Origin: Candidatus Dormiibacterota bacterium
GTDB taxonomy: Bacteria > Chloroflexota > Dormibacteria > Aeolococcales > Aeolococcaceae
Assembly: GCA_963718525.1 (NCBI GenBank)
Contig: OY970355.1
Span: 672,001 to 736,000 of the forward strand
Direction of reading: 5' to 3'
Length of the DNA: 64,000 bases
The notes beneath the pieces were generated by a model that saw nothing but the letters and a program-made list of their open reading frames with translations, made no database searches and was not told the origin of the DNA. Positions 9,491 through 25,497 of this stretch are shown piece after piece. Position numbers and translations under genes: made by a program. How positions within the stretch are numbered: position 1 is the stretch's first letter; each line of letters begins with the position of its first letter.

Positions 9491-9519
9491 GGCTCCTCGC
9501 CAGCCTCGACATGTGCCGG

Positions 9520-10549: not shown

Positions 10550-10624
10550 CCGACCAAGGAAATACCCAGCGCAGATCGGCTGCTGGAAAGATGCCGCCCT
10601 CTCTGGGCGCAGACGCAAGATCCG

Positions 10625-10812
10625 ATGCCATCCAGGAAGCGAACTCACCGCGCCGCGCCATACGTGCTCGCGCCAGGCGAGATCCGCCGGAGCCCGCTGT
10701 CCGTGCCGAGCGTCAAGGGCCGATTCGTCCGATACCGCTGGGCTGGTCACCGTGTGCGAGGGGACGCTGGCACCCTGGAAGCCGGGCCCACCACTGCACC
10801 TGCACACGTCAA
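10625..10812 (+). pseudogene. Cupin domain remnant
   Basis: PYVLAPGE...SVK, a frameshift near 10717, then DSSDTAGLVTVCEGTLAPWKPGPPLHLH (cupin motif 1); truncated after. Confidence 0.5.
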
Positions 10813-10885
10813 GTATCAACCGAAGCCGTGTCAAGGATCAGCCGCACCCCTCTTGTCAGGAATCAGCCGGATCTATACATCACAT

Positions 10886-10928
10886 TGGTTGGGGAGAGAG
10901 GATTCGAACCTCTGATGGCTGATCCAGA
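10886..10928 (-). tRNA. 3' half of tRNA-Gln(CUG), partial; probable att site
   Basis: Minus strand TCTGGATCAGCCATC-AGAGG-TTCGAAT-CCTCT-CTCCCCA-A-CCA: anticodon CTG, T-arm, acceptor 3' strand and CCA. The 5' half is absent. Confidence 0.8.
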
Positions 10929-11096
10929 TTACTCGTTCCTCGTTGCACCTCCTGAAATAGCCGGTGCCCCGCCTGGTCGCGAAGCTGCGCTCACATCCGG
11001 GAGACGGGGATTATCTCCACGCCCGCTAGGTCGATCTCACGTTCGGCTGCAAACTGCTACGACCGGTACGTAGCAGCAGGCAAGTCCGGCCGCGAT

Positions 11097-11552
11097 TCAT
11101 TTCGTGACTGCGAGCGCGTCGCGCATCCAGGGTGGCAGAGTGATGCGACCTTTGCCATTCGGATCGATCGCTACATAAACATTGCGACCGACAGCGATGA
11201 CTTTATCCTCATCGATCATGCGGAAGCCGAGCTCGAGAGACGAGGTTCCCAATCGTAGGCATCCGACCTCGAGCACAATCTCGTCGTCGAACTGCGCAGG
11301 CTTGAGGTACCGGCACGTTGCCTCGACTACAACCAAGTCGAGCCCACGCTGGTGTATCGCGCTCCAGTCACCTACGGCCGTCCGCAAGTACTCAACCATG
11401 CCCATATCAAAGTACTCGAAGTAGCGCGAGTGGAAGACATATCCTTGGGGATCGCACTCGCTATAACGCACCCGAAACGGCCAACGATGCCCTAGGGTTC
11501 TCGTGGTGAGCCGGTCAAGCACCTTTGACGGATCAGATTGGATAGAAGCCAC
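11097..11552 (-). CDS. Acyl-CoA thioesterase (4HBT/YbgC hotdog family)
   Basis: RVRYSECDPQGYVFHSRYFEYF, CRYLKPAQFDD. Confidence 0.9.
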   Translation of the reverse strand: MASIQSDPSKVLDRLTTRTLGHRWPFRVRYSECDPQGYVFHSRYFEYFDMGMVEYLRTAVGDWSAIHQRGLDLVVVEATCRYLKPAQFDDEIVLEVGCLRLGTSSLELGFRMIDEDKVIAVGRNVYVAIDPNGKGRITLPPWMRDALAVTK

Positions 11553-11656
11553 CCCTCTACGTCGTCCGCTCCGTCCTAACGAAAGTCAAGACGAGGCCCC
11601 GTCGGTATGGTCAAGGTCGACGGGTCTCATGGGGCAGGCGCGGCTCGGGCGCGACT

Positions 11657-12151
11657 TCACGCATGATCGAGCCCGCGATCTGCGCGGCGGAGCGCGACCC
11701 CCTCGACCGCGTTCACGATTGACGAGTACCCGGTGCACCGACACAAGTTGGAGCTGACGGACTCCCGAATGGCAGAGCGCGAAACACCTGCGGGCGATGA
11801 TGCCAGGCACGCGTAACTCACCACTAACATCCCTGACGTGCAGAAGCCACATTGAAAGGCGTTGTTGTGGAGGAAAGAGGCTCGAAGTTCCGTGGCCAGC
11901 TCGCGATCCAGGAAATCAAGTCCTTCTACCGTCACCACTCGGTGACCCCGTGCCTTCCACAACGGCACGAGACAACTCCTCACCGGCTGCTCATCGACGA
12001 GGACTGTGCAGGCACCGCATACGCCGTGTTCACAAATTGTGTGGCCACCTTGGAGACGGATCTTGTCTCGCAGGAAGTCACTCAGTGACCAGTAGAGCGG
12101 CACTTCTATCGCACATTCGACGCCGTTGATGGTGATAGTTTCGCTATCCAT
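11657..12151 (-). CDS. Molybdenum hydroxylase 2Fe-2S small subunit (CoxS/XdhC-like)
   Basis: CEHGVCGACTV, QCGFCTSG, NLCRCTGY. Confidence 0.93.
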   Translation of the reverse strand: MDSETITINGVECAIEVPLYWSLSDFLRDKIRLQGGHTICEHGVCGACTVLVDEQPVRSCLVPLWKARGHRVVTVEGLDFLDRELATELRASFLHNNAFQCGFCTSGMLVVSYACLASSPAGVSRSAIRESVSSNLCRCTGYSSIVNAVEGVALRRADRGLDHA

Positions 12152-12989
12152 TGGTTCCACTCCTCGCGAGCGTGTTCCGAGTGGTCCAGGCTCGCTCGAC
12201 CAGAATCTCCGCGACCCACTCCGCAGAGAAGCCTGACTGGACCATCGCTTCTTCAACTCCGGCTCTGACCTCGTCGCGCAGCTGCGCACGGTTCGCCAAC
12301 CGGCCGACCTGGATCAAGCCCGCGCTGCCATCTCGTACCGCAAATGCGATCCGGCCGCTCTGAGCTTCGCCTCCAGCTGTTGGAATTGCCAACGCCGCGG
12401 CCAGAACGGGCACCCACGTCCCCTGCTCCCCAACCTCAAAGAAGTCCCACCCGTCGAGCCCGTCCTGCAGAGGCACCTCAAGGTGCGTGAGCAGCAGGAC
12501 TGATGTGTCGCGCTCTGGTCGCATCGAGCGGAGCTCGAGCCCGGTCAGCCTCCGGGTCTCCCCCCATGAATCGAGGACGACGGCCGCGCCACCACATGCC
12601 ATGATCGCGAGCGGGATCTCCGCGGTTGGCGACCCATGGAAGAAGTTGCCGCCCGCAGTCGCGAGGGTCCGTATCGGACCGACAGCGACCTGCGATGCCG
12701 CTTTTGAGACGAGTCCCCCATTGCCTTCGAGTGAAGTTGCGGCTAGCTCGGCCAGGGTCATGCAGCTGCCGACTGCCAGCATCGCACCGTCATCCACTGA
12801 GTGGGCACGATGAAGCTCGCTCACACCCGAGAGGTCAATAAGGCATGTGGGGCGCCGGTAACCCAAGCGCAGCTCGTAGAGCAGCCCCTGGCCGCCGGCG
12901 ACGAACATTGCCTCCGGGTGTTCCCGCCACATCGCTACGGTTTCGGCGACCGTTGTCGGACACAGGTACTCAAGCGGATAGAACTTCAT
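12144..12989 (-). CDS. Molybdenum hydroxylase FAD-binding medium subunit (CoxM-like)
   Basis: AGGQGL, IRTLATAGGN; operon context. Confidence 0.88.
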   Translation of the reverse strand: MKFYPLEYLCPTTVAETVAMWREHPEAMFVAGGQGLLYELRLGYRRPTCLIDLSGVSELHRAHSVDDGAMLAVGSCMTLAELAATSLEGNGGLVSKAASQVAVGPIRTLATAGGNFFHGSPTAEIPLAIMACGGAAVVLDSWGETRRLTGLELRSMRPERDTSVLLLTHLEVPLQDGLDGWDFFEVGEQGTWVPVLAAALAIPTAGGEAQSGRIAFAVRDGSAGLIQVGRLANRAQLRDEVRAGVEEAMVQSGFSAEWVAEILVERAWTTRNTLARSGTNG

Positions 12990-15487
12990 GCGTCGCCTGC
13001 CCCCAGCCCCACCGGTTGGGTTTGGTTGCAGAGGTGCTGCCAGTCGAGACAGGCGTGAACAAAGTCTCGATGGTGGAGCGGCAGTTCGTTGACCACGAAT
13101 CCAACGGGTCGCAGGGCATCGCTGAGTGCTGTCGCGATTGCGGCAGGTGCACCGATCGGCCCATCTTCGCCCCCCCCGCGCACCCCAAAGACATTCCCAG
13201 GCGAGAGGGTCTCGACGTGCAAGACCTCAATCTCAGGGACGTCGGTAGCGCGTGGGGTTCGGTAGCGGAAGAGATCAGTTGCGCCGGACTGCCCTGCGTC
13301 GTTGAACTCGATGAACTCGAGGAGCGCCTGGCCCAGTCCTTGCGCCACGCCTCCACGAACCTGCTCGTCGAGCAGGGCTGGATTTATGACGCGGCCGGAG
13401 TCACCGACAACGACGTACTTACGGAAGCGGATCTCACTCGTGAGCGTGTCCACAGCGCACACAACCCCGTGCCAGGCGTAGGGCGACGTGAATGGCTTCG
13501 CCGGTCGAAAACTGCTAACGGCCGACAACCCCGGTGTGATTCGGCGGGGGAGACGGCTCATCTGGAAGTACGCGACGCGGCACACATCTTCAAGCGACAC
13601 CACGCGGCCATCGAGTGCTCGAACGCCTTCCGCAGTCAGGCTGACTTCTCCGTCGGTGCCAAGGAGCGACGCCCCAATGTCCTTGATTTTCCCGGCTAGT
13701 TCCTCTGCTGCCGTGACAACAGCGCCGCCACTGATCACCGAGACGCGACTGCCCCATGATCCGGAGCCGTAGTGGGCGCTTCCCGAGCTGTTGCCGGCGA
13801 CCCGCACACATCGTGGGTCGATGCACAGCACCTCACTGACCATCTGCGCGAACGTCGTCTCATGAGCCTGTCCGGAGGACGCGGCGGCGATACGGACATC
13901 GACTGAGCAGTCCGGGTTGACCCGGACATACGCTTCCTCCCAATCCGTTACGGCTCTCACGCCCAGGCCGTCCATCGAGACGGCCGATGGCTCCGCTACT
14001 GCCGATAGCCCAATGCCGATCAGGACGCGGTCGTGCCGGCGCCGGCGCTCCTCCCGCTCCTCGCAGACCGCGCGATAGTTGAGATGCTCAAGCGTCATGG
14101 CAAGTGCCGTGCGGTACTGCCCGGCGTCATAGTGAACGCCTGCGGAATTTGGACCTGTCTGCATCTCCGGCAAGAGATTGAGCTCCTGCACCGCTGCAAA
14201 GTCCTGTCCCACTGCCCATGCCACATCCTGAAGTACCCGCTCCACCACGAAGACGCCAACTGGTGCAGCCACGCCGCGGTAAGTGCCGCCCGTTGGCTTG
14301 TTGGTCATGACGGCGCGGGTGTGATAGGAGTATTCCCCGAGGTCATAGATTGAGGGAAGACGGAAGGGCAGGGCGGCCGCCTCAACCGCCGACGAGAGCG
14401 GCGAGTACGAGTACGCTCCAGCGTCACTCGTGGAGTCCACATGGAAGGCGACGATGCGACCGGTGGAGTCATACGCGGCCACCACATCATTGACTTCCCG
14501 TCGAGCCTGAATACCATTTTGGAGATGTTCAACAGATGTCTCGAGCCATCTGACTGGGCGTCCCGTATGCATGGCAAGGAGGCAAACCGCAATTTCCTCC
14601 CTCTGCGCACCGATCTTCGCCCCGAAGCCGCCTCCTACATCGGGTGCAACGACCTCGATGTTCAACTCTGGCAAATGGAGCACGTCGGCTAGCACGCGGC
14701 GAAGCATGAGCGGGGTCTGTGTGCTCGCGGTGACCTTCAGCGTGCCATGAGTCCAGACGGCTAGGCACCCTCGTGGTTCCATGGGCATCGCGGAGATGCC
14801 GGCGGTCATGAAGCGCGTCTGAAGATTCTGATCTGCGGACATCTCACGGACCCGCTGCGCGAGGCTCTCAGACGTGATGCCAGTTGCCTCGGTCGGATAC
14901 GACCCCTCGGCGCCATCCGCGCGCGTCCCTACGGCTTCGTAGAGAATGTTCGAGCCCAGATCGTTGTACAAGATGGGCACCCGATCAGACGCGCTCCCGG
15001 CGACGAGTGCATCGACCACCACCGGAAGCGGATCGATCTTCACGACCACGTGCTGGGCCGCTGCCTCTGCCTCAGAGCGATCCGGTGCCGCGACGATTGC
15101 TACCGGGTCCCCGATGTATCGGACCTTCTCCACGGCCAAGCACCAGAACTTCGGGTTTGCGTGGGTTGGGATTTCCCAGTGCGCGGGCATCGGGGCGCTC
15201 AGTGAGGCGACATCGAGGCCTGTCATACCCACGACGTCAGGCCGATGCGGCGTCGTCGCGCGTGTCAGGTCAACCTCTCGGAGCAGGCCGTGCGCGATCG
15301 TACTCCGCACGAATATCGCCTCCAGTGCTCCCTCCGCGTCAACATCCGCAAGGTATGCTGCCGCGCCGCGTACGAATCTGGCGGCGTCGATGCGAGGAAC
15401 GCTGCTCCCCACGACTGATTCGGAGCCCGACGCCTCAGCGAGACCCCACCGCTCCGCTGACTGGTTTCCTGATCTCAACTCCTTCAC
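12986..15487 (-). CDS. Xanthine dehydrogenase family molybdopterin-binding large subunit
   Basis: PMEPRG, VGGGFGAK, active-site loop TYRGVA, GSWGSR, QVRGGVAQGLG, GGGE. Confidence 0.93.
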   Translation of the reverse strand: MKELRSGNQSAERWGLAEASGSESVVGSSVPRIDAARFVRGAAAYLADVDAEGALEAIFVRSTIAHGLLREVDLTRATTPHRPDVVGMTGLDVASLSAPMPAHWEIPTHANPKFWCLAVEKVRYIGDPVAIVAAPDRSEAEAAAQHVVVKIDPLPVVVDALVAGSASDRVPILYNDLGSNILYEAVGTRADGAEGSYPTEATGITSESLAQRVREMSADQNLQTRFMTAGISAMPMEPRGCLAVWTHGTLKVTASTQTPLMLRRVLADVLHLPELNIEVVAPDVGGGFGAKIGAQREEIAVCLLAMHTGRPVRWLETSVEHLQNGIQARREVNDVVAAYDSTGRIVAFHVDSTSDAGAYSYSPLSSAVEAAALPFRLPSIYDLGEYSYHTRAVMTNKPTGGTYRGVAAPVGVFVVERVLQDVAWAVGQDFAAVQELNLLPEMQTGPNSAGVHYDAGQYRTALAMTLEHLNYRAVCEEREERRRRHDRVLIGIGLSAVAEPSAVSMDGLGVRAVTDWEEAYVRVNPDCSVDVRIAAASSGQAHETTFAQMVSEVLCIDPRCVRVAGNSSGSAHYGSGSWGSRVSVISGGAVVTAAEELAGKIKDIGASLLGTDGEVSLTAEGVRALDGRVVSLEDVCRVAYFQMSRLPRRITPGLSAVSSFRPAKPFTSPYAWHGVVCAVDTLTSEIRFRKYVVVGDSGRVINPALLDEQVRGGVAQGLGQALLEFIEFNDAGQSGATDLFRYRTPRATDVPEIEVLHVETLSPGNVFGVRGGGEDGPIGAPAAIATALSDALRPVGFVVNELPLHHRDFVHACLDWQHLCNQTQPVGLGAGDA

Positions 15488-15948
15488 TGCCTTCCTCTTC
15501 CACCGCTTCCAGAAGCCTGAACTTGTGGAACGTCTACAACCGCCGTCGCCTCGATTTCGATCAAAAACTCAGGACGCACAAGACGCTGCACCACGAGAAG
15601 AGTATTGGCCGGGTACACATGCTCCGGGAAGTAGGTGTCAAACAGCCGCGCCCGAGTTTCGTAGAACAGCGGAATGTCTTCCGCCCGAGTCAAGAAGGTC
15701 GTGAACTTGACGACGTCTCCGAGACTGCTCCCTGCGGCTGAAAGTACGCGTCCAAGATTCTCGAAGACGACCTCGGTTTGGCGCCCGAGATCGCCTTCTC
15801 CCTGCAGGTTTCCATCGATATCGACAGCCACCTGTCCCGCTACGAAGGTCGCGGCCCCACCCCGCATCGTCACGGCATGTGAGTACGCGCCGAGAGGAGC
15901 CCCAACCCCCTCCGGATTCACAAAGTATTCCAAATGTTTAGTGGCCAC
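15484..15948 (-). CDS. RidA/YjgF family protein
   Basis: YSHAV, FVAGQV, LIEIEATAV; the usual catalytic Arg position reads PANT. Confidence 0.9.
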   Translation of the reverse strand: MATKHLEYFVNPEGVGAPLGAYSHAVTMRGGAATFVAGQVAVDIDGNLQGEGDLGRQTEVVFENLGRVLSAAGSSLGDVVKFTTFLTRAEDIPLFYETRARLFDTYFPEHVYPANTLLVVQRLVRPEFLIEIEATAVVDVPQVQASGSGGRGRQ

Positions 15949-15976
15949 TCGCGTTCAACTGCCTCCCGTCAACGTG

Positions 15977-16864
15977 CTAAGCATGAGTCAGATACGGCGA
16001 AACGGACGGGTCGCCAAAGAGGGGATTATGAGCACCTTCGATGAAGTCGCATACCAAAGAGTTGAACAAGTTCGGATACTCCAAGAACGGCAGGTGCCCG
16101 CACCGCGGGAGGATGGTGAGGTGTGACTGCGGGATGCGTGCTGCCCCCCACGCGGCTGTCTCCGGGGAGCATCTGGGGTCCTCGCGCCCCGAAATGACGA
16201 GCGTCGGCACGCGTATCTCGCCGAGCCGATCGACTACTCGCTGCTCGGGCGGCGCGGGCCGACTACGCAGATCATCCAGAAGCGCCTCGTAGAAGGCTTG
16301 TACCTCTGGGAGCGCGTAGGAAGTCAGTTGCGGCAGCAACACCTCCTCTGGCACCGAGCGTGCATCCCAACAAATGCGAGCCAGCCGGGCTCGACAGCTC
16401 TCGAGTGACGCATGTTTGATGGCTGTCATGGCGTTCTGGTAGGTGTCCGAGTACATCTTCCGCGCAGCCTCGTCCGCTGTGAAACAGCTGCCGCTTCCAA
16501 CAATGACGAGACCCTTAACGCGGTCGGGCATGCGGAAGTACACAAGAGCAGCGATCAGAGCACCCACGGAGCTGCCTACGATCGTGACGCTCCCGAGAGC
16601 AAGTGCATCCATGACTGCGCAGATGTGCGTGGTGAGGGCTCCGCGAAAATCTCTATCCAGCACCTCACTTACACTGGTAAAGCCATGCCCAAGAAGATCC
16701 GGCGCGACCACCGTGTGCCTCTGCCCTAGGTCTGCTACGTTGCGGAGCCACAAATCTGCCGAAAGGCCCACTCCGTGAAGGAGCAGGACGGCATCGCCGT
16801 CACCATCGACGAGATATCGCGTGCGGACATCGCCGGCCCGCAAGTACATGGCCCGCATCGCCAC
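15977..16864 (-). CDS. Alpha/beta hydrolase (meta-cleavage hydrolase/amidase-like)
   Basis: LLHGVG, PDLLGHG, GSSVG nucleophile elbow, GREDP, CGHLP. Confidence 0.88.
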   Translation of the reverse strand: MAMRAMYLRAGDVRTRYLVDGDGDAVLLLHGVGLSADLWLRNVADLGQRHTVVAPDLLGHGFTSVSEVLDRDFRGALTTHICAVMDALALGSVTIVGSSVGALIAALVYFRMPDRVKGLVIVGSGSCFTADEAARKMYSDTYQNAMTAIKHASLESCRARLARICWDARSVPEEVLLPQLTSYALPEVQAFYEALLDDLRSRPAPPEQRVVDRLGEIRVPTLVISGREDPRCSPETAAWGAARIPQSHLTILPRCGHLPFLEYPNLFNSLVCDFIEGAHNPLFGDPSVSPYLTHA

Positions 16865-16915
16865 TAAGCTCCAGCTTCGGCAAACCGGTAACGGACGGCC
16901 GTCAAGAGAGCCTCG

Positions 16916-18391
16916 TCAGGGCGCACTTGGGCGCACCGCTGGTTGTCCACTGTCCGCCACGCTTCCGTCTCGGGGGAGACCGGCACGGAGGTTCCCCAAG
17001 CGGCGACGGGCCAGGACCAGATACAATCCGCCGCCGACCACTGGAGCGACGAACCAGGAGAGGTCTCCGCCATTGACAGCATTCGCAATGGGTCCGACCC
17101 AGAACGTCAGATTGGCGAAGGGGACTGCCACGGCGGCGCCCACCAGCCAGCTCACCAGGCCGGGCCAATTCCACGAGCCGTACATGCCGTTAGGTTTGAA
17201 TATCTCGGCCGTCACGTAATGGCGACGGCGGACGAAGTAGAAGTCGACCAGGTTCACGGCCGACCACGGCAGGAGGAAGAGCACTGCGACTGACAAGAAG
17301 TCACCAAAGACGCCGAAGAAGCTGTTCGCGTAGGCTATCGATGCAGCTAGTGCGAGCGCGAAGACCGGTACCATCGCAACGATCCGCGCCGTGCAACTCT
17401 TGGTCACCGCGAACCGCGGGTTAAGCGATTGGACAAGGCTCAAGGCCGTGTTCACGCCTGCGTAAAGTGAGAATGAACCTTGAAGGACCGTGACAATGCA
17501 TGTCACTGTCACAAACAACCAGGCAAACCAGAGTCCCAGTCCGCTCACCACCGTGAAGAGCGCACCGAAAACGTCCGGGGTGTAGCGGAACTCGACACCG
17601 AGGAGGGCTCCAAATACGAGAAGCCACAGTTCGCCCACCCAGATACCGAGATACGTCCATCCCGAGACGGCCCCAACACTCACGTCCGGCCTGAGGTACC
17701 TTGAATAGTCGGCTACATAAGGCGCGTATCCGGCGGCAAAAATGAAACTGAAGGATATGGTCCCCAGAAAGAGCCCCAAAGAGAAGGAACCACCGAGAGG
17801 AACTGACCCCCCGTTCGGAAGAGTGTTGTGAAAGATCAGCGTAAGAAACGCCACGAGGTACACAACGATCGCAACAACCGTCAGGACCTTACCAAGGGCG
17901 TGTGAGAAGTTGTAGCCGAACAGGGCCACCAGCGCGCAAAGCACCGCTATCACAACGGTGAGGAAAATCACACTGAGGCTAGGGGCTCCGCCAACGACGA
18001 GCAGGGCCGAGGCCGATGGGTTAGATGCAAAGAATCCAATATAGATGAATTCCGCCATAATCATCGCGAAAATAGATCCGCGGAATCCAAACTGCGCCCG
18101 CGATTGAATCATTTGGGGAATGCCTAAGGTCGGGCCTTGGGCGGCGTGAAAGGCCGCGAGCGCACAGCCTCCCGAGAGACCGATCACCATCGCGACCACG
18201 GTCCAGATGAAACTGGCGCCCGGCGATACAAACAGGGCGCCGGCACCAATACTGGCTACCACGACGCCTCCACCAAAGAAGAGCGTGAACATGTCCCGAG
18301 GCCGTCCGTGGCGCTCATTCAACGGGATGAAATCGATCGAGTGTTCCTCGATGGCGAGCATGTTGGTAGCCCCAGTCGTGGTCTCCGGCAT
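16916..18391 (-). CDS. NCS1 purine-cytosine permease family transporter
   Basis: IEEHSIDFIP..ERHG, GIPQMIQSRAQFG, ADYSRY, PWSAVNLVDFY; RBS GGAGG. Confidence 0.92.
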   Translation of the reverse strand: MPETTTGATNMLAIEEHSIDFIPLNERHGRPRDMFTLFFGGGVVVASIGAGALFVSPGASFIWTVVAMVIGLSGGCALAAFHAAQGPTLGIPQMIQSRAQFGFRGSIFAMIMAEFIYIGFFASNPSASALLVVGGAPSLSVIFLTVVIAVLCALVALFGYNFSHALGKVLTVVAIVVYLVAFLTLIFHNTLPNGGSVPLGGSFSLGLFLGTISFSFIFAAGYAPYVADYSRYLRPDVSVGAVSGWTYLGIWVGELWLLVFGALLGVEFRYTPDVFGALFTVVSGLGLWFAWLFVTVTCIVTVLQGSFSLYAGVNTALSLVQSLNPRFAVTKSCTARIVAMVPVFALALAASIAYANSFFGVFGDFLSVAVLFLLPWSAVNLVDFYFVRRRHYVTAEIFKPNGMYGSWNWPGLVSWLVGAAVAVPFANLTFWVGPIANAVNGGDLSWFVAPVVGGGLYLVLARRRLGNLRAGLPRDGSVADSGQPAVRPSAP

Positions 18392-18534
18392 GGCTAAACC
18401 TCCGCCTCTCGACCAGATGGATGGGTTGCAGCGATTCGCTTGTGCACGCGTTTCTCCTGATAAAAGGGGGCAGCCGGCCGATGATCGGGCGGAGTGTAGC
18501 GACCACAGGATTGCTCCGTCAAGGGAAACGGGCA

Positions 18535-18565
18535 GTTCTGATCCAAAATCAGCATCCAAAATCAG
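18535..18565. promoter_or_regulatory. Candidate GntR operator (TGAT-N5-ATCA with tandem ATCCAAAATCAG)
   Basis: GTTCTGATCCAAAATCAGCATCCAAAATCAG between the divergent permease and GntR; near-identical 17-mer at 21984. Confidence 0.65.
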
Positions 18566-18745
18566 GAGGGCTCAGGCCGGAGCTTGTCCATCCCCCGGGC
18601 TGCCAGTTCAGGGCATCAGCTGTTCGAATGTGCCGCGACGGGCGCTCTCGTCGCGGTAGGCTTGCTCGTCATGGGTACGCGGGCGGCGCCTCGAAGCCTG
18701 GGAACTCCTCCAGCGAACATTGGGTCATGGGTGAGCGGGCTGGCC

Positions 18746-19462
18746 ATGTCATCCGCGGCGCCGAGCGTCGGCATCCCTGGGACGCGCCACAAGCTTGGCC
18801 ACGAGGTCAGTAGGTACATCCGCGACGCCATCTTGAGTGGAGCGTTTGTTCCAGGTCAGCGAATGGGTGTCCATGATCTCGCCGAGTCTCTGGGAGTAAG
18901 CACGATGCCGGTGCGAGAGGCCCTCGTCACGCTCGCCAACGAGGGCTTACTTGACGTGTTGCCACGTCGCGGGTTTCGCGTTGCCTGGCTGCGCCAGACA
19001 GACCTCCGCGACGTTTACCAGATTCACGCGTTCGTTTCGGGGCTACTCGCCGGATATGCAGCGACGGTAATCAGCTCAAGCCAGATCGCCGAGCTGCGAG
19101 AAATCGACGAGCGCATCGGCCGGCTCGAACGGCGGCGGCTGAGTTCCGTCGAGCGCTCGGAGCGCATCGAGGAGCTGAATTTCAAGTTCCACCGCACGAT
19201 TAACTTGGCGACCGACCACGGGCGGTTGCACTGGTACCTTCGCACCGCCGATCGATATATCCCACGACGATTCCACACGAGGATCGTTGGGTGGGACGAG
19301 ACCACCGTTCACGGTCACGCCGAGATCATCAGCGCACTCGAAAGGCACAACTCTCGTCGAGCAAGGCGCCTGGTGGAGACGCACATTTCAACTGCGGGCG
19401 ACCTGATCATCGCGAATCTCGACAAGCTCGGCCTGTGGTCGGCCGACGGTCCCGGCTCGTGA
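18746..19462 (+). CDS. GntR family regulator with FCD domain
   Basis: LAESLGVSTMPVREAL, NFKFH, HAEIISAL. Confidence 0.92.
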   Translation: MSSAAPSVGIPGTRHKLGHEVSRYIRDAILSGAFVPGQRMGVHDLAESLGVSTMPVREALVTLANEGLLDVLPRRGFRVAWLRQTDLRDVYQIHAFVSGLLAGYAATVISSSQIAELREIDERIGRLERRRLSSVERSERIEELNFKFHRTINLATDHGRLHWYLRTADRYIPRRFHTRIVGWDETTVHGHAEIISALERHNSRRARRLVETHISTAGDLIIANLDKLGLWSADGPGS

Positions 19463-19517
19463 CGGCTAACTGCGCCACCGTGAACGATCGGCTGAAGAGG
19501 ACGATGCCAATACCACT

Positions 19518-21905
19518 TCAGTATGACCGCGGCATGTCGAGCACATTGTGCCCGAGATACGCGAGCACGAGGTTGTTCGGCACCGGCGCGTTCAGGTACA
19601 GCCGCGTCTCACGGAACTTCCGCTCGATATCAAAATCGGCTGCGAATCCCCATCCTCCATGAGCGTCGAGGCAGGCATTAGCTGCTTGCCATGAGGCCTC
19701 GGATGACAGCAGCTTTGCCATGTTCGCTTCTGGCCCGCAGGGGCGTCGCGCGTCGAAGAGCGACGCGGCCTTCCAGCGCATGAGGGACGCCGCCTCAATG
19801 GCCGCGTGGGCGCGCGACAACGGGAACTGGACGCCTTGATTGGCTCCGATGGGGCGGCCGAACACCTCACGCTGCCTAGAGTAGGCACTTCCGGTTCGAA
19901 CAAACCACCGCCCATCTCCGATGCATTCGGATGCGATGAGAATCCGCTCCGCATTCATCGACTCTATTAGATAGCGGAATCCGAGGCCCTCGTCACCGAC
20001 GAGAGCGTCCTCCCCAACTTCAAGGCCGTCGAAGAAAACCTCGGTGGTCAGGTGGTTGCTCATCGTCTTCAACGGCCGGACAGTCAGCTGTTCGCCGGCG
20101 AGGCGCATGTCAATCAGAAAAACAGATAGACCCTCCTGACTGCGGGTTCCACTCGTGTTTTGGGATGTTCGGGCGATCAGCATCATCAGGTCGGAATGCT
20201 GCGCCCTCGAGATGAAAACCTTCTGTCCATTGATCCGCCAACCTCCATCGATCCGCTCGGCGGTTGTTGTGATGGCTGTCGTGTCAGAACCAGATGTGGG
20301 CTCTGTGACACCGAAAGCCTGCAGCCGCAGAGCTCCGGCAGCGATTTGCGGTAGCCAGCGCGACTTCTGCGCCTCGCTGCCAAATCGCAGGAGTGTTCCC
20401 ATCGTGTACATCTGCGCATGACAAGCGGCAGCGTTGCCCCCTGACGAATTGATCTCTTCGAGGATGACGCCTGCCGCTGAAAGCCCGAGTCCGCCTCCGC
20501 CGAATTCACTCGGAATCAGAACTGCCAGCCAGCCCTGCTTGGTCACCTCCGCGACGAACGTCTCCGGGTACTGGTCGGGTTCTAGTCCACGCCAATACGA
20601 CGCAGGGAAGCCCGCGCACAGCTGTGCAACCGCCGAGCGTATGTCGCGGAATTGCTCCGCCTCGTCGAACCACATCCCTCGACTTCCAATGGATGATGAC
20701 ACTGGATCAACGCTTCGTCCGAATGTCGCGCGGGCTATGCGATTGCCGCCCAGTTCGGCCAGCACTTCGTTGGTATGCTCGCCAAGCGCCGGAACGTTTC
20801 CGGTAGGCGCGTCAACTCCCGCGAGGTTGAATGGCGGTCGCAGCGCGGGCACCGGCCCAGTGGGCGTAGACACTTCAAACCAGCGGTCCCGAGAGGCCAG
20901 TTGCACATGCGCCGCTAGGCCCGCGACATCGTTGACGACGCCATATGGAATATCGCCAGCATCAAGAGCGCGTAGGACCGTCGGAAGATCTCTCGTAGCG
21001 AGGCGCTCCTCGACCAATCGCTCTAGGCTCACGCGATTCGTCACGCGCAATTCGTTGGTGCGATATCGGGGATCCTGCACCAATCCTGGATCCTCAAGCA
21101 ACCCGGTGCAGAACGCTTGCCACTGAGCTGCGGTATGCACAGCCAAGTTCACCATCCGGCCGCCCGCGACCGGATATGGGCCGTAGGGGCAGATGCTGTT
21201 GTGCCGCATGCCTGTGCGGACCGGCTCTTGTCCCGTATACATGCGATGGTAGAGCGGAGTCATCATCCACTCAGCAAGACAGTCAAGCATTGCAATATCA
21301 ATCCGGATCCCTTCGCCCGTCCGGTGTCGCTGGAGGAGGGCGGCGAGTACCGCGCTCAGCGCATACATCCCTGAGGAGATGTCCGCGATCGAGATGCCAA
21401 CCTTGGCAGGCTCGCTCGGACTGCCGGTGACCGAAACGACCCCGGCCTCCCCTTGGATCAACAAGTCGAAGCCCTTACGCTGCGCCTCCGGGCCAGACGT
21501 CCCGTAGGCAGTGATCCCGCAGACTATGAGCCCCGGCCAACGAGCGTGCAGGTGATCCCAGCCTAATCCCAGCCGCTCGATGCCTCCTGGTCCGAGGTTG
21601 TGGACCAAGACATCGGCGCCGGCGAGCAGGCTCTCCAGAGCCGCCAGGCCGGCGGCGGAAGCCAAGTCAAGGACGACGCTGCGTTTACCTCGGTTCAGCC
21701 AGACGAAGTAGGCGGAGTCGCCATGCACGACGGAGTCGTAGCCGCGCGCGAAGTCGCCTCCGCCTGGCCGTTCGATTTTGACGACGTCGGCTCCCAGGTC
21801 AACAAGATGGCGGGTACACAGGGGTGCTGCCACGGCCTGCTCCAGCGCCACTACTCGGAGGCCGCGAAGAGGTGGCGTGCTGATGAGAGGATGGCTACCG
21901 CTCAT
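19518..21905 (-). CDS. Fusion of a CaiB/BaiF family III CoA-transferase and an acyl-CoA dehydrogenase
   Basis: N-half LEQAVAAP, LGADVVKIERPGGGD, NRGKRS; C-half VTEPTSGSD, INGQK, FGRPIGANQGVQF, HGGWGFA; single 795-aa ORF. Confidence 0.9.
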   Translation of the reverse strand: MSGSHPLISTPPLRGLRVVALEQAVAAPLCTRHLVDLGADVVKIERPGGGDFARGYDSVVHGDSAYFVWLNRGKRSVVLDLASAAGLAALESLLAGADVLVHNLGPGGIERLGLGWDHLHARWPGLIVCGITAYGTSGPEAQRKGFDLLIQGEAGVVSVTGSPSEPAKVGISIADISSGMYALSAVLAALLQRHRTGEGIRIDIAMLDCLAEWMMTPLYHRMYTGQEPVRTGMRHNSICPYGPYPVAGGRMVNLAVHTAAQWQAFCTGLLEDPGLVQDPRYRTNELRVTNRVSLERLVEERLATRDLPTVLRALDAGDIPYGVVNDVAGLAAHVQLASRDRWFEVSTPTGPVPALRPPFNLAGVDAPTGNVPALGEHTNEVLAELGGNRIARATFGRSVDPVSSSIGSRGMWFDEAEQFRDIRSAVAQLCAGFPASYWRGLEPDQYPETFVAEVTKQGWLAVLIPSEFGGGGLGLSAAGVILEEINSSGGNAAACHAQMYTMGTLLRFGSEAQKSRWLPQIAAGALRLQAFGVTEPTSGSDTTAITTTAERIDGGWRINGQKVFISRAQHSDLMMLIARTSQNTSGTRSQEGLSVFLIDMRLAGEQLTVRPLKTMSNHLTTEVFFDGLEVGEDALVGDEGLGFRYLIESMNAERILIASECIGDGRWFVRTGSAYSRQREVFGRPIGANQGVQFPLSRAHAAIEAASLMRWKAASLFDARRPCGPEANMAKLLSSEASWQAANACLDAHGGWGFAADFDIERKFRETRLYLNAPVPNNLVLAYLGHNVLDMPRSY

Positions 21906-21983
21906 TCGTGCCCCCGGACAGCCCTGAATTCGACACTAATGACTCACCATCACATCGTCGTTCGGCAGACCGCGGCCACTCAT

Positions 21984-22000
21984 GTTCTGATCTAATATCA
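21984..22000. promoter_or_regulatory. Second copy of the candidate GntR operator
   Basis: GTTCTGATCTAATATCA, 15/17 identical to 18535-18551, in a divergent intergenic region. Confidence 0.65.
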
Positions 22001-22100
22001 TACTTACCCAACCCGATGAGCACCGAGGGGAACTCGGATCGATATAGTCTGACGAGCTAAGCCGGCTCGGCGGCGGGGAGAATAGTCAGGAGGTTCTGGC

Positions 22101-23105
22101 GTGATGACTTCGGCCACGATGGAGCTACGAGAGATGGTCCGCTTCAGACCGCGCCGGTTGGCGCATGGCAACTTCTTCGTGAGCGACCTTGAGAGATCCA
22201 CCTCCTTCTATGTCGACGTCTGCGGACTCAACCTCGTCTATCGAGAGCCTGGAATCCACGCTAACTTCCTCAGCAACGGTAGCAGTCATCACGACGCCGC
22301 TCTGATGGAGATATCGCGGGAAGCCAGGGTCGGACGGGGTGGCCATGTTCAGGTGCCGGCCGGGCGGGGGCGCACCCCGGGACTGAACCACGTCGCCTTC
22401 GAGATGGAGAACGAGGCGCTCCTGGTTGCTGCCTATCGGCGAGCGGTAGCGGCGCATGTTCCCATTCACCGCACCGCCGATCATCAGATCTCTCATAGCG
22501 TCTATCTCTTCGATCCCGATGGCAACTACCTCGAGATCTACTGGGACGCGACCAAGGACTGGCGCGGTGTCTACAAGGCAAATGAGAATGAACTCCTGAC
22601 GGCAACGTGGGATCCTAACGCCGCGGCTCCCTCAGATGACCGCAATTACAATCCAGATCCCCAGTACTCGACGGTGCCAGCAGCTCTTCTGCATCCAAAA
22701 CGGACGTCCCGCGCCGCTCTGCTCACCCCTGATGTCCAAAGGCTTCAAGACTTCTACGTCCAGATCGTCGGGCTCGACGTTGTAGCCGAAGATCCGGAGA
22801 GTAGATATGTAACGCTTGCCGGTACTGTTGACGGTCAGGACATTTCGCTTTTGGTGACGCACGATGGGCGGAAAGGCTTGCACCACTTCAGCTTCGAGCT
22901 CGAGGAGGAGGCGGAACTAGCGGATGCGATCGGAAGATTGAAGGCAGGCAGGATTCCTATCCTCGCGGAGATCGACAACCCGACCAAGCACAGCGTGGCG
23001 ATTGCTGATCCGGACGGCATTGTCCTCGAGTTCTTTGTGAAGCGCCGGGTTCCGCTCTCGGCTTATGCCCCTGCTGAAAATGAGCCGATTGAGTTTGTGG
23101 TTTAG
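22101..23105 (+). CDS. Two-domain VOC family protein (extradiol dioxygenase-like)
   Basis: LAHGNFFV, GLNHVAF, DHQISHSVYLFDPDGNYLEIY; second domain GLHHFSF...DPDGIVLEFF. Confidence 0.85.
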   Translation: MMTSATMELREMVRFRPRRLAHGNFFVSDLERSTSFYVDVCGLNLVYREPGIHANFLSNGSSHHDAALMEISREARVGRGGHVQVPAGRGRTPGLNHVAFEMENEALLVAAYRRAVAAHVPIHRTADHQISHSVYLFDPDGNYLEIYWDATKDWRGVYKANENELLTATWDPNAAAPSDDRNYNPDPQYSTVPAALLHPKRTSRAALLTPDVQRLQDFYVQIVGLDVVAEDPESRYVTLAGTVDGQDISLLVTHDGRKGLHHFSFELEEEAELADAIGRLKAGRIPILAEIDNPTKHSVAIADPDGIVLEFFVKRRVPLSAYAPAENEPIEFVV

Positions 23106-23187
23106 GTGCCGGCGGAGTGCCTAAGGTCGATCACCAAATTCCGCCGGATTTGCAACGACCTCTAGCGATCTCGGCTGAAGCCGCGAA

Positions 23188-24366
23188 GTGAGACCTGGAC
23201 ACGCGGAGATCGTCGGCGGTGGGCTGGCTGGGTTGACCGCAGGCTTGGCGCTGGCAAAGAGCGGCTGGCGCGTGCGAGTCCATGAACGCTCCCCCGAGTT
23301 GCGGGAGATCGGCGCTGGTCTGTACCTCAAAGAGAACAGCCTGCGAGTCCTTGAGCGGCTGGGTGTCTTTGACGAGGTTGCAGCTCACGGTGTCCGTCTA
23401 GAGAGAATGGATATCCATGACGTGGATCGAGATCGCTGGTTGATCCGCGAGGTCAGTCAGCTTCGCGTGTATAACGTCGTCCGTACGGCGTTGCACCGCA
23501 CGCTTGCGCAGGCGGCGGTTGCGCGCGGAGCCGAAGTCCTGACTAGCTCCACGGGAGTCCACGCAGAGCCTTCGGGTCGGCTCCGTCTGGCCTCGGGAGA
23601 GACGGTAACCGCTGACTTGGTGGTCGGGGCGGACGGGATTTACTCGAAGATCCGCGAATCGGTCCGCCTCGGTCGCGCACTGCGGATCCTTCCCGAAGGC
23701 GGCACCCAACTCTTAGTGAAGCGAACCGAAGCTGAGTCAAAGGCTTGGAGCGTCGAACACTGGTCGGGCAAGCTCCGGATGCTAACCACCCCATGCAGTG
23801 CTACCGACACGTATGTCGCGCTTATGGGTCCCGAATCGGACAAGCGCGCGTCAGCGGTGCCGATCGACAAGCGACGTTGGTCGAACGCTTTTCCCAATCT
23901 CATCGACATAGTCGGGAGGATGGGCGACAAGGATGGAGTCCACCACACAAACGTGAAGGTCGAGACGCGAGGCTGGGCATCAGGCAAAGTAGCAATCGTA
24001 GGCGACGCGGCGCACGGGCAACCGCCAAACCTTGGCCAGGGCGCCGGGCTCGCCATCGCGAACGGGTTGGCGCTTGCCGACATGCTCCAGCGGTACGACA
24101 CGGTCGAGGAAGGTCTCCTCGCATGGGAGGCAACCTTTCGTCCGGTGGCCATGGCAACGCAGCGTTGGTCCTGCTGGTATGGCAACCTCGCCTACCGGTG
24201 GCCGACCAGGCTGGGCAACTACCGCATGCCGGCACTTGAGGGGATCAATGCCTTTCCGCCGCTCGGCAATCGCTATTTCTGGCTCTGGCAAGGCGGCCTT
24301 TCCGACTACAAACAGCCGCGCTCGCTCACCAAAGCGCTCCGTGTGCACCGGCGCGACAAGGCCTAA
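23188..24366 (+). CDS. FAD-dependent monooxygenase resembling 2-methyl-3-hydroxypyridine-5-carboxylate oxygenase (MHPCO)
   Basis: AEIVGGGLAG, HERSPELREIGAGLYL, VGADG, SAVPID, GDAAH..PPNLGQGA; MHPCO resemblance is from recall. Confidence 0.8.
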   Translation: MRPGHAEIVGGGLAGLTAGLALAKSGWRVRVHERSPELREIGAGLYLKENSLRVLERLGVFDEVAAHGVRLERMDIHDVDRDRWLIREVSQLRVYNVVRTALHRTLAQAAVARGAEVLTSSTGVHAEPSGRLRLASGETVTADLVVGADGIYSKIRESVRLGRALRILPEGGTQLLVKRTEAESKAWSVEHWSGKLRMLTTPCSATDTYVALMGPESDKRASAVPIDKRRWSNAFPNLIDIVGRMGDKDGVHHTNVKVETRGWASGKVAIVGDAAHGQPPNLGQGAGLAIANGLALADMLQRYDTVEEGLLAWEATFRPVAMATQRWSCWYGNLAYRWPTRLGNYRMPALEGINAFPPLGNRYFWLWQGGLSDYKQPRSLTKALRVHRRDKA

Positions 24367-24442
24367 TTCCGCGCCTTCGTGTCGAGAGGTCGCGATGGGG
24401 TGTCGTGATGATCCATCGACGCGTTCCTACTCGATTTCGCCG

Positions 24443-25288
24443 TCAATGTGCGCCGGTTAGAGGCGTCACCAACCTGCCGAGGCCCTGCACCTCGACCTCG
24501 ACGACATCCCCGGGCTTCATCCACACTTTGGGATCACGACCCTGAATAACGCCTTCTGGCGTGCCCGTGGCAATGAAGTCACCGGGCTCCAGGGTCACAT
24601 ACTGACTGATGTAGCTGACGAGAGCGCGAACGCTGAACAACATATCTGATGTCGTGGAATCCTGCCGCAGCTCGCCGTTGAGCCAGCTCCGGATCGTGAG
24701 GTTCTGCGGATCGTCTACCTCGTCGGCTGAGACCAACTCGGGGCCTACGGGAAGAAAGCCGTCGAGCATCTTCCCGAGCAGGTACTGGCTGGTGCGGAAC
24801 TGGAGGTCCCGCGCTGACAGGTCATTGCAGTTGCAGTAGCCCCAGACATGGTCAAGAGCCTCCGCCTCTGACACCCGACGAGCGCGTCGACCGATGACCA
24901 CCCCGAGCTCCGCCTCATAGTCGTACTCGCGAACATCAGCAGGCAGCGTCACCGGTGATCCCGACGCGACGAGGGCATTGTTGAACTTAGAGAACAGCGT
25001 GGGAGTCGAAGTCGGCGTGAGGCCGATTTCGGCGGCGTGACGCCGATAATTCATACCGACGCAGAGGAGTTTGCCTGGCAACGGCACGCATAGGCCGTTG
25101 GTGCCAAGGTGGGTCGCCAAACGACCTACAGTCGCTGCGCGCTCAGCACGTATTCGAGCCCTTTCGCCGCCTGTAACAAGCTCACTCACAGAACGCGGCG
25201 CATCCCCGTCGGTTAATATGGCCCAACCCTCCGGCCGTCGGATCGCGAGCCGTGGGCCATGCTCGGTAATGAGTCCTGTGACGCGCAT
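24443..25288 (-). CDS. Fumarylacetoacetate hydrolase family protein
   Basis: CVGMNY, DYEAELGVVIG, NDLSARD, ATGTPEG. Confidence 0.93.
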   Translation of the reverse strand: MRVTGLITEHGPRLAIRRPEGWAILTDGDAPRSVSELVTGGERARIRAERAATVGRLATHLGTNGLCVPLPGKLLCVGMNYRRHAAEIGLTPTSTPTLFSKFNNALVASGSPVTLPADVREYDYEAELGVVIGRRARRVSEAEALDHVWGYCNCNDLSARDLQFRTSQYLLGKMLDGFLPVGPELVSADEVDDPQNLTIRSWLNGELRQDSTTSDMLFSVRALVSYISQYVTLEPGDFIATGTPEGVIQGRDPKVWMKPGDVVEVEVQGLGRLVTPLTGAH

Positions 25289-25497
25289 AGGTACGCTTCT
25301 CCGGGGTCTTCTTCACGTTGTCGATGGGGTCGCGCGATGGTGGATAATGAGTTTCGCATAACCACGTGGCAGTGGCGTCTTTAGGAGCGCCGAGCTCCAT
25401 GGCGCGGCTCAGCGCGCTGGATTTCCGCACACCGCCGCGCTAGAATCCTGTAGGCCTGCGCTTGAGGCGCGTCGAACCGGGCTCGGAGGGTTGGAGA

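Follow-up and report, generated by a model that had tools for sequence, protein, structure and literature searches.

Gene content of the locus

The window analysed here is a stretch of 64,000 nucleotides from the genome of a Candidatus Dormiibacterota bacterium (contig OY970355.1, positions 672,001 to 736,000 of the forward strand). This genome, a single contig of 3.34 Mb from a soil bacterium, is called G000 below; coordinates are positions in the 64-kb window unless a genome or locus is named, related loci are numbered L0xx and genomes of the genus G0xx. Positions 11097-25288 are occupied by 12 open reading frames (ORFs), lying on what appears to be a horizontally acquired island of ~14.4 kb (roughly 10.93-25.38 kb). 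We lean, with modest confidence, towards the view that this island encodes an aza-analogue of catechol meta-cleavage for a small N-heteroaromatic compound of the pyridine or pyridone type, in which a two-domain VOC protein would open the ring. An earlier reading of the same DNA (the original prediction) had named 12 genes and their families; all are present, and Pfam assigned a family to each ORF in agreement with it. The features are as follows.

10885-10928, minus strand: 3' fragment of a tRNA-Gln gene, at the left border of the island
11097-11552, minus strand: 4HBT thioesterase, YbgC/FadM-type acyl-CoA (Pfam 4HBT, E 2e-15), last gene of the minus-strand block
11657-12289, minus strand: small subunit, with 2x[2Fe-2S], of a molybdenum (Mo) hydroxylase (Pfam Fer2_2, E 3.5e-22, and Fer2)
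12144-12989, minus strand: FAD-binding medium subunit of the Mo hydroxylase (Pfam FAD_binding_5, E 5e-27)
12986-15487, minus strand: large (molybdopterin) subunit of the Mo hydroxylase (Pfam Ald_Xan_dh_C, MoCoBD_1 and MoCoBD_2)
15484-15948, minus strand: Rid / L-PSP protein (Pfam Ribonuc_L-PSP, E 5e-24)
15977-16864, minus strand: alpha/beta hydrolase (Pfam Abhydrolase_1, E 1.4e-23)
16916-18559, minus strand: NCS1-family permease (Pfam Transp_cyt_pur, E 4e-35)
18536-18551, strand-less: candidate operator TTCTGATCCAAAATCA, between the NCS1 operon and gntR
18584-19462, plus strand: GntR/FCD regulator (Pfam GntR, E 3e-17; FCD, E 1.8e-11)
19518-21905, minus strand: CoA_transf_3/ACAD fusion (Pfam CoA_transf_3, E 1e-105, residues 13-378; ACAD N, M and C domains, residues 419-770)
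21985-22000, strand-less: candidate operator TTCTGATCTAATATCA, between the fusion gene and the VOC operon
22101-23105, plus strand: two-domain Glyoxalase/VOC protein (Pfam, AlphaFold model, conservation)
23188-24366, plus strand: class A FAD monooxygenase, the MHPCO/Moq-family flavoprotein (Pfam FAD_binding_3, E 3e-31)
24443-25288, minus strand: FAH-family enzyme (Pfam FAA_hydrolase, E 1.5e-71)

Seven genes form the minus-strand block, in the order NCS1, alpha/beta hydrolase, Rid, Mo large subunit, FAD subunit, 2x[2Fe-2S] subunit and 4HBT, with 4-bp stop/start overlaps between several gene pairs (e.g. 15484-15487 and 12986-12989). To the right of this block lie the divergent GntR/FCD gene, the fusion gene on the minus strand, the VOC and flavoprotein genes on the plus strand and the convergent FAH gene. 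The small subunit of the Mo hydroxylase probably starts nearer 12151 than the annotated 12289, and the starts of the NCS1 permease and of the GntR/FCD regulator may possibly lie near 18391 and 18746, respectively. When the 12 island proteins were scanned against NCBIfam, none scored above the cutoff of an equivalog model. The one threshold passed was that of a subfamily model, by the thioesterase (TIGR00051, 73.3 bits for a cutoff of 68.7).

Conservation of the gene set

A profile of 37 relatives of the flavoprotein retrieved 78 metagenome loci, against which the 12 island proteins were compared by tblastn. At least 6 kb of flank is available in 42 of these loci, and the called ORFs of 18 long loci were assigned by Pfam. 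A scan of genome contigs with a single protein yielded one locus, L001. Relatives of the other island proteins accompany the flavoprotein at the following frequencies.

VOC: 29 of 78 loci; 22 of the 42 with at least 6 kb of flank
Rid: 13 of 78; 12 of 42
Hydrolase: 14 of 78; 12 of 42
FAH: 8 of 78; 7 of 42
GntR: 12 of 78; 7 of 42
NCS1: 7 of 78; 4 of 42
Mo large subunit: 11 of 78; 8 of 42
CoA-transferase/ACAD: 5 of 78, all partial (232-379 aa); 5 of 42
Thioesterase: 0 of 78; 0 of 42

The association of these genes exceeds chance. The nine recurring genes are those for GntR, a transporter, the three-subunit Mo hydroxylase, the flavoprotein, VOC, the hydrolase, Rid and FAH. The most complete arrangement is that of L002, where VOC, Mo large, FAD subunit, (Fe-S), NCS1, hydrolase, Rid, flavoprotein, FAH and GntR follow one another in one direction, so that one co-directional operon contains nine of the twelve families. 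A similar arrangement is seen in L003 and L005. The genes of the cluster co-occur elsewhere, both in the 78-locus survey and in the L002 operon.

Other loci carry part of the set. L011, L030 and L035 combine GntR, an ABC transporter with an NMT1/THI5-type binding protein, the flavoprotein, VOC, FAH, the hydrolase and Rid, and lack a Mo enzyme. L016 agrees with them in its gene set, its FAH being recognised by a tblastn match only. Only the VOC and flavoprotein pair is found in L054, L072, L074 and L079, together with other transporters (MFS or branched-chain-type ABC). L039 and L046 carry the flavoprotein, Amidohydro_2, the hydrolase, Rid and, in the place of VOC, Amidohydro_1, which looks like a reciprocal replacement of one ring-cleaving candidate by the other; Amidohydro_1 genes occur in L039, L046, L047 and L050.

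The VOC protein as candidate ring-cleaving enzyme

Among the related loci, VOC is the most constant partner of the flavoprotein. The AlphaFold model of the island protein, computed from 41 sequences (pLDDT 94.9), has the two-domain fold of the type I extradiol dioxygenases, with four beta-alpha-beta-beta-beta modules. In a Foldseek search with this model, catechol 2,3-dioxygenases, LapB, AphC and homoprotocatechuate dioxygenase rank first (E 1.6e-18 and weaker), and VIA-align superposes it on LapB and XylE with a Z of 26.5 and a root-mean-square deviation of 2.7-2.9 Å over 263-267 residues. Identity in the listed structural alignments is 15-21%. A search of the PDB with the sequence returned a single match (E 7e-7), and the Protein Atlas offers generic 'dioxygenase family' clusters only. 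Named sources of relatives are Mycolicibacterium murale and Cryptosporangium phraense.

The residues H22, H63, H64, D65, H97, E101, H128, S133, Y135, E145 and Y147, all of them in the N-terminal domain, are invariant in the 41 VOC sequences. Except for an insert, they are spaced like the metal ligands of BphC and XylE and the second-sphere His/His/Tyr of these enzymes. When each domain is scanned by itself against TIGR03211, the model for catechol 2,3-dioxygenase, the segment 17-149 falls on positions 143-264, the catalytic half, and the C-terminal domain on positions 5-126 (E ~5e-8 in both cases). The catalytic site of type I extradiol dioxygenases is C-terminal, whereas the conserved residues of the island protein lie at 22-147. 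On this modelled structure and pattern of conservation, the VOC protein looks like the dioxygenase that would cleave a pyridinediol in the extradiol manner, with an N-terminal active site. The original prediction had given it no role.

A conserved insert of ~18 residues lies between H64 and H97 (residues ~66-94), with G78, G81 and Q84 invariant. Judged by spacing, it is presumably absent from the classical extradiol dioxygenases, and it may shape the substrate pocket.

The flavoprotein

The flavoprotein has the class A FAD monooxygenase fold, and its nearest solved structures are those of MHPCO. Its five best PDB matches are all MHPCO (E 7e-64 to 1e-63, ~219 bits), the best being 3gmb/3alj with residues 5-365 aligned, and the next match falls to E 2e-19. 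A reading as a urate hydroxylase or purine enzyme was rejected, HpxO scoring 115 bits vs 219 for MHPCO. By tblastn of plasmids, the protein is 38.6% identical to the FAD monooxygenase of plasmid pAL1 of Arthrobacter sp. Rue61a. The MHPCO bit scores of the group are 219 for the window flavoprotein, 217.6 for the pAL1 monooxygenase, 219.1 for L054 and 177.7 for L011, and each of the best 120 listed database relatives of the window flavoprotein scores at least 273 bits with it. The flavoprotein is not nearer to MHPCO than to enzymes of other function; by these scores, MHPCO is no orthologue, but a roughly equidistant cousin of the whole group, which includes a plain hydroxylase. Since MHPCO is equally near the plain 3-hydroxylase of pAL1, which acts on a 4-pyridone ring, the label 'MHPCO-like' does not imply ring opening.

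The active-site residues of MHPCO are Tyr82, Arg181, Arg211, Tyr223 and Tyr270. Two of the five are kept: Tyr223 corresponds to Y209 and Arg211 to R197, both invariant in the 37 relatives (37/37). Tyr82, Tyr270 and Arg181 are replaced by E72, N255 and Q174. At codon 174 (23707-23709), where the window has Gln, 35 of the 37 relatives have Arg and a 97%-identical metagenome protein (P0001) has Lys; this change at a probable active-site residue is specific to the lineage. A vitamin B6 context is not apparent either: of the B6-degradation enzymes, Pfam detected neither a GMC oxidase nor a lactonase, a class II aldolase-type decarboxylase or a pyridoxal dehydrogenase in the 19 proteins scanned.

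In a tree of 80 flavoprotein sequences (quick IQ-TREE run, LG+G4), which has no MHPCO row and leaves out L001, matches of <310 residues and matches containing a stop, the proteins of the window and of L002-L005 form a clade of five rows with an SH-aLRT of 100. This clade lies within a half of 41 rows that contains every locus with the VOC, Rid and hydrolase (and FAH) context; the pAL1 enzyme and the 'VOC-only' loci are in the other half. Plasmids hold 13 records of flavoprotein relatives (33-43% identity), and the core was found in none of the six plasmid neighbourhoods inspected: H1 has a 138-aa VOC gene only, H4 and H10 an amidohydrolase and an ABC transporter, H2 another Mo enzyme and H7 a different dioxygenase, and H8 is pAL1. 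We propose that the flavoprotein is a hydroxylase that would make a vicinal diol.

The Mo hydroxylase and the transporter

The best solved relative of the Mo large subunit is quinoline 2-oxidoreductase (1t3q, E 1.9e-94), followed by CO dehydrogenases and 6-hydroxypseudooxynicotine dehydrogenase. The large subunit is 54-56% identical to its counterparts in L002, L003 and L005. The small [2Fe-2S] subunit has relatives of 41-48% identity beside the Mo subunit in L002-L005, where the FAD medium subunit is 34-44% identical. A search of plasmids with the large subunit gave nothing above 36% identity, and its identity to the pAL1 large subunit is 27.7%. The loop TYRGVA pointed out in the original prediction is there, the translation reading GGTYRGVAAP, which differs from the form-I CO dehydrogenase loop (AYXCSFR, with Cys). 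A reading as aerobic CO dehydrogenase (form I) was discarded, with TIGR02416 at 357 bits vs a cutoff of 991 and no match in the loop, and so was a reading as 4-hydroxybenzoyl-CoA reductase, far below its NCBIfam cutoff.

The NCS1 permease is 48% identical in L002 and L003; in L011, L016, L030 and L035 it is replaced by the ABC transporter already mentioned.

A second CoxL-type Mo hydroxylase lies at 43233-46113, its large subunit being 33.8% and its Fe-S subunit 39.7% identical to those of the island. A GntR relative (29% identical) is found nearby, at 40253-40987. This region is probably a separate catabolic cluster.

The hydrolase, Rid and FAH enzymes

The nearest solved relatives of the alpha/beta hydrolase are C-C hydrolases of meta-cleavage products (CumD 2d0d, E 1.5e-21), and its triad, Ser99, Asp229 and His257, is kept in 15 of 15 aligned proteins. 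We propose that it acts as an N-formyl (N-acyl) amide hydrolase on the ring-fission product. Arg122 of the Rid protein is kept in 9 of the 15 aligned Rid proteins of related loci, and an enamine/imine deaminase function is proposed for it. The solved relatives of the FAH enzyme are HpcE/HpaG (E 1.3e-70), 2,4-diketo-3-deoxyrhamnonate hydrolase (E 2e-48) and FAHD1 (E 8e-40), in keeping with its proposed role as an acylpyruvate (2,4-diketo acid) hydrolase. FAH ORFs confirmed by Pfam stand beside the core in L002, L011, L030 and L035; the FAH of L016 is a tblastn match (43% over 234 aa), with no FAH ORF among those scanned by Pfam.

Outside the window, the region at ~1,235,000-1,249,000 of G000 holds an FAH (49% identical), three Rid paralogues (37-40%) and a [2Fe-2S] subunit, and may be a further cluster for the catabolism of N-compounds.

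A proposed pathway and its alternatives

A VOC dioxygenase, a meta-cleavage-type hydrolase and an FAH-fold enzyme make up the classical trio of catechol meta-cleavage, and Rid proteins hydrolyse enamines and imines. The trio together with a Rid protein thus matches what a ring nitrogen would require. All the steps of the pathway that we propose are predictions from the gene content. The substrate would be imported by the NCS1 permease and receive a first oxygen, adjacent or para to the ring nitrogen, from the three-subunit Mo hydroxylase, which would give a pyridone. The MHPCO/Moq-family flavoprotein would then hydroxylate the neighbouring carbon, producing a vicinal pyridinediol, and the VOC extradiol dioxygenase would open the ring at the catalytic site of its N-terminal domain. 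The N-formyl (or N-acyl) group would be removed by the meta-cleavage-hydrolase-like alpha/beta hydrolase, the resulting enamine or imine would be hydrolysed by Rid with release of ammonia, and the 2,4-diketo acid would finally be split by FAH into pyruvate and a small acid.

The series that we favour would lead from 4-pyridone to 3-hydroxy-4-pyridone (3,4-dihydroxypyridine), N-formyl-formiminopyruvate, formiminopyruvate, formylpyruvate and, at the end, formate and pyruvate. On paper, this series alone gives every conserved enzyme a substrate. Because this is chemical reasoning on paper and not evidence, we rate it low, as a tentative choice within the general model that may well be wrong. A route through 2,5-dihydroxypyridine was set aside: it would need enzymes of the NicX, NicF and NicE types, and Pfam detected no family of a NicX-type 2,5-dihydroxypyridine dioxygenase, maleamate amidase or maleate isomerase in the 12 proteins of the island.

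Several observations weigh against the aza-meta-cleavage pathway. The structural alignments of the VOC protein to catechol dioxygenases are colinear, N-domain on N-domain, so that the reversal of its domain roles is deduced from conservation; the N-domain active site rests on that conservation and on a weak match to a hidden Markov model (E 5e-8), together with presumed equivalences to BphC and XylE. Y209 and R197 of the flavoprotein, two residues of the MHPCO substrate site, are kept in 37 of 37 relatives, and a 3-hydroxypyridine substrate or an MHPCO-like reaction is possible on this ground; moreover, Gln stands where MHPCO has Arg181 and nearly all relatives (35/37) have Arg. According to PMC7356986, KpiA, the monooxygenase of a 4-hydroxypyridine pathway compared below, is PqsH/AqdB-like and belongs to another flavoprotein branch than the MHPCO-like protein of the island. 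The Mo large subunit has no close characterised relative (1t3q is the best solved one, and no NCBIfam cutoff is reached), so that both the substrate and the place assigned to it in the pathway are putative. Among the NCBIfam models, it scores highest with glyceraldehyde dehydrogenase (420.7 bits vs a cutoff of 790), and a late, aldehyde-oxidising role is possible. Lastly, the 16-bp site described below has no copy upstream of the FAH gene.

The same aza-meta-cleavage logic might be applied to another ring: 2-pyridone or 3-hydroxypyridine, through 2,3-dihydroxypyridine, a methyl or carboxy pyridone, or a diazine such as a hydroxypyrimidine or hydroxypyrazine. Mo hydroxylases usually attack a carbon adjoining the nitrogen, the MHPCO-like residues of the flavoprotein suit 3-hydroxypyridine, NCS1 carriers and NMT1/THI5-type binding proteins are typical for pyrimidine-like or vitamin-like solutes, and a side chain giving rise to a carboxylic acid would account for the accessory CoA genes. 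However, cleavage of 2,3-dihydroxypyridine would on paper give oxalate and aminoacrolein, leaving the conserved FAH without a substrate, and no data single out any one of these rings. We judge such a substrate rather unlikely.

In the scheme of the original prediction, the flavoprotein opens a 3-hydroxypyridine ring like MHPCO, the hydrolase cuts an acyclic amide and the VOC protein is left to a side role, such as isomerisation or detoxification. It agrees with MHPCO being the only solved close relative (219 bits) and with the invariance of Y209 and R197, and the B6 pathway also couples MHPCO with an alpha/beta-fold amidohydrolase. Against it, MHPCO lies just as near to the pAL1 enzyme, a plain hydroxylase, and to further branches, and the equivalents of Tyr82, Tyr270 and Arg181 are lost. 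This scheme would also leave without a role both FAH and VOC, the commonest neighbour of the flavoprotein (29/78), which has what looks like a complete extradiol-type residue pattern. We consider it decidedly improbable.

Alternatively, the island might be a mosaic of unrelated units: a Mo-enzyme operon (for example an aldehyde or purine-type oxidoreductase with its permease), the CoA-transferase/ACAD gene and, independent of both, a flavoprotein/VOC pair acting on a phenolic compound. This would fit the many loci with VOC and flavoprotein only and MFS or branched-chain-type ABC transporters (L054, L072, L074, L079), the lack of conservation of the fusion and thioesterase, the rearrangement indicated by IS256 remnants and the aldehyde dehydrogenase type of the top NCBIfam match of the large subunit, but it is very unlikely given that in L002 and L003 the orthologue of the Mo enzyme (54-56%) shares a co-directional block with NCS1, VOC, the hydrolase and the flavoprotein, that the flavoproteins of L002-L005 and the window are one clade (SH-aLRT 100) and that the 16-bp site ties the two halves of the cluster together.

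The aza-meta-cleavage pathway retains part of what the original prediction had drawn from the genes. Catabolism of an N-heterocycle, with uptake and a Mo-hydroxylase step at its beginning, is supported, and the cluster resembles neither the B6 nor the nicotinate or picolinate clusters, the Pfam table holding no NicX, NicF, NicE, PicB/C or B6-type genes. MHPCO-type ring opening does not follow from the resemblance, with 2 of the 5 active-site positions kept and MHPCO equally near the pAL1 hydroxylase, and the CoA step considered next is not supported either.

The CoA genes, the regulator and the 16-bp site

The thioesterase has no relative in any of the 78 loci (tblastn). The CoA-transferase/ACAD fusion is the sole fused copy in G000, by tblastn of the genome against itself, and is absent from L002-L005 (tblastn, and Pfam on called ORFs). 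Among its best 120 matches in a collection of 5.8 billion proteins, 16 have both kinds of domain and four of these 16 are at least 760 aa long, one being a 97% twin of the window's protein. The fusion and the thioesterase are lineage-specific, accessory additions. As they are not conserved (the former only partial in 5/78 loci, the latter in 0/78), the CoA-dependent handling of a dicarboxylate that had been predicted is not a conserved part of the pathway. In L005, a 704-aa BAAT/acyl-CoA thioesterase protein, unrelated to the 4HBT family, directly follows the flavoprotein (5910-8024).

A 16-bp word, TTCTGATCYAAWATCA, with 2 degenerate positions, occurs at 18536-18551 and 21985-22000. Derived from these two sites themselves, it is found at <=1 mismatch nowhere else on either strand of the 3.34-Mb genome, and at <=2 mismatches nowhere else within the window. 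A 17-of-20 match between the two regions would arise by chance with a roughly estimated probability of ~0.005. Both sites are retained in the sister genome locus L001. GntR/FCD genes are also present in L002, L011, L016, L023, L030 and L035. The candidate site is found in each of the two divergent promoter regions, and it is probably through this site that the GntR/FCD protein regulates the unit. Sharing of so rare a site suggests a single regulon, possibly including the fusion, and hence suggests that the fusion is co-regulated with the pathway genes. A promoter and terminator scan gave counts not above chance (3 vs 3.0 expected; 15 vs 9.8). Six sequencing runs contain DNA of the locus, four of them labelled soil metagenome, and no RNA run is among these six.

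Borders of the island

Among the matches listed, the cluster is present in 2 of 42 genomes of the genus, G000 and G052. The latter, a 'Candidatus Dormibacteraeota' metagenome-assembled genome that carries L001, is the nearest public relative of G000; its DNA matches the cluster with 94% identity over window positions 16483-25363, where its contig ends. No match to 11100-24450 is among the DNA matches listed for the other 40 genomes, whereas the right flank (25391 onward) is matched in at least 16 of them with 71-92% identity. An orthologue of the flavoprotein was absent from 24 of 24 genomes of the genus, the best match being 31% identical. The right end of the island lies at ~25364-25391, just past FAH, and the thioesterase is inside the island. 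Directly to the right (25381-27681) follow genus-conserved genes for a 272-aa ORF without a Pfam family, a PpoB2-type copper chaperone and a DUF899 protein.

At the left border, the tRNA-Gln fragment shares 91% of 45 nt with the 3' end of a complete tRNA-Gln(CTG) gene of G000 (743711-743785), and these 45 nt are matched at up to 96% in many genomes of the genus. No intact tRNA that could have served as integration site was detected by ARAGORN in 8000-28000. A 241-bp remnant of an IS256-type (Mutator family) element lies at 9525-9765, 1.3 kb to the left of the island; the full repeat, of ~1.4 kb, is found at 741795-743191 of G000 and in ~4 further copies. In G052, FAH is followed by a copy of this IS256-family element (L001 ~9130-10340; Transposase_mut, E 7.5e-129) and then by sequence found at 2.82 Mb in G000.

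Significance of the module

Many plant alkaloids, cofactors and agrochemicals, and allelochemicals such as mimosine, contain a pyridine or pyridone ring; to our knowledge, few enzymes that open such rings have been described. Those known are the LigB-type PydA and the amidohydrolase-type KpiC, acting on 3,4-dihydroxypyridine, and NicX, acting on 2,5-dihydroxypyridine. As a speculative extension, towards which we remain cautious, the five enzymes (hydroxylase, domain-reversed VOC, hydrolase, Rid and FAH) may constitute a widespread soil route of aza-meta-cleavage for pyridinediols, whose VOC protein would be the first of its superfamily to open a pyridine ring. The Mo hydroxylase would extend this route to a non-hydroxylated heterocycle, and the CoA fusion and thioesterase would feed or drain it by way of a CoA thioester, for instance if a saturated ring carboxylate were dehydrogenated. 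If the general aza-meta-cleavage model holds, VOC is a fourth, unrelated family among the enzymes that cleave rings of the 3,4-dihydroxypyridine type, a function can be given to the module in dozens of unannotated soil metagenome contigs, and the uncultured phylum Dormibacterota has a first concrete catabolic trait gained by gene transfer. It would also mean that the annotation 'MHPCO-like' is no proof of a ring-opening enzyme.

Comparison with known systems

As far as the literature searched goes, with most subscription journals and supplements outside its reach, neither this gene set nor a VOC-type dihydroxypyridine dioxygenase has been described, in line with the original prediction of a candidate undescribed pathway.

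The closest in logic is the proven kpi pathway for 4-hydroxypyridine of Arthrobacter sp. IN13 (MT469879). There, the monooxygenase KpiA converts 4-hydroxypyridine to 3,4-dihydroxypyridine, KpiC, of the Amidohydro_1 family, performs the extradiol cleavage to 3-(N-formyl)-formiminopyruvate, and KpiB, an alpha/beta hydrolase of 295 aa, removes the formyl group, the following imine hydrolysis being assumed to be spontaneous (PMC7356986). KpiD, of the FAH family (288 aa), is proposed to split 3-formylpyruvate, the permease (533 aa) is placed in the SLC5-6-like solute-binding superfamily, and the classical 4-hydroxypyridine pathway of Agrobacterium is cited (PMC7356986). Compared at the family level, the island likewise has an FAD monooxygenase, a putative extradiol dioxygenase, an alpha/beta hydrolase (295 aa), an FAH (281 aa) and a permease, so that an alpha/beta-hydrolase deformylase, an FAH hydrolase and a permease accompany a ring hydroxylase in both. 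The ring is cleaved by the Amidohydro_1 protein KpiC in kpi, but would be cleaved by VOC in the island, and the kpi set has neither a Mo hydroxylase in front nor a Rid protein, both of which are in the island. No KpiC-type Amidohydro_1 gene was detected by Pfam in the island. The SLC5-6-like superfamily of the kpi permease presumably corresponds to NCS1.

The gene block of strain Rue61a encodes quinaldine 4-oxidase, 1H-4-oxoquinaldine 3-monooxygenase, a 2,4-dioxygenase and N-acetylanthranilate amidase, an alpha/beta-fold enzyme (PMC3534580). On pAL1/pARUE113 (L080), the monooxygenase gene stands among genes for a three-subunit Mo hydroxylase, 3-hydroxy-2-methylquinolin-4-one 2,4-dioxygenase and an alpha/beta hydrolase; because of its position in the block, we infer that this FAD gene is that of the 3-monooxygenase. 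As in the island, a Mo hydroxylase is followed by a related flavoprotein (38.6%), a dioxygenase and an alpha/beta-fold amidase. The substrate of the pAL1 pathway is, however, bicyclic, and its dioxygenase is a cofactor-free, CO-releasing enzyme of the alpha/beta fold. Its product is anthranilate, so that Rid and FAH are outside the upper pathway, and the Mo large subunits are only 27.7% identical.

With MHPCO, the island protein shares the subfamily of class A flavoproteins and the equivalents of Tyr223 and Arg211; unlike the MHPCO pathway, the island lacks the other B6 genes, and the constant VOC partner suggests hydroxylation, not ring opening. With XylE, LapB, BphC and homoprotocatechuate 2,3-dioxygenase, the VOC protein has in common the two-domain fold and partner enzymes of the same folds; its invariant residues also suggest the His/His/Glu and His/His/Tyr pattern. 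It differs from these type I extradiol enzymes in that its conserved residues are N-terminal, not C-terminal, in its ~18-residue insert and in having a Rid partner for the nitrogen. The logic of the pathway is thus that of kpi and pAL1; what is new is the family of the ring-cleaving enzyme, the Mo enzyme and the phylum of the host.

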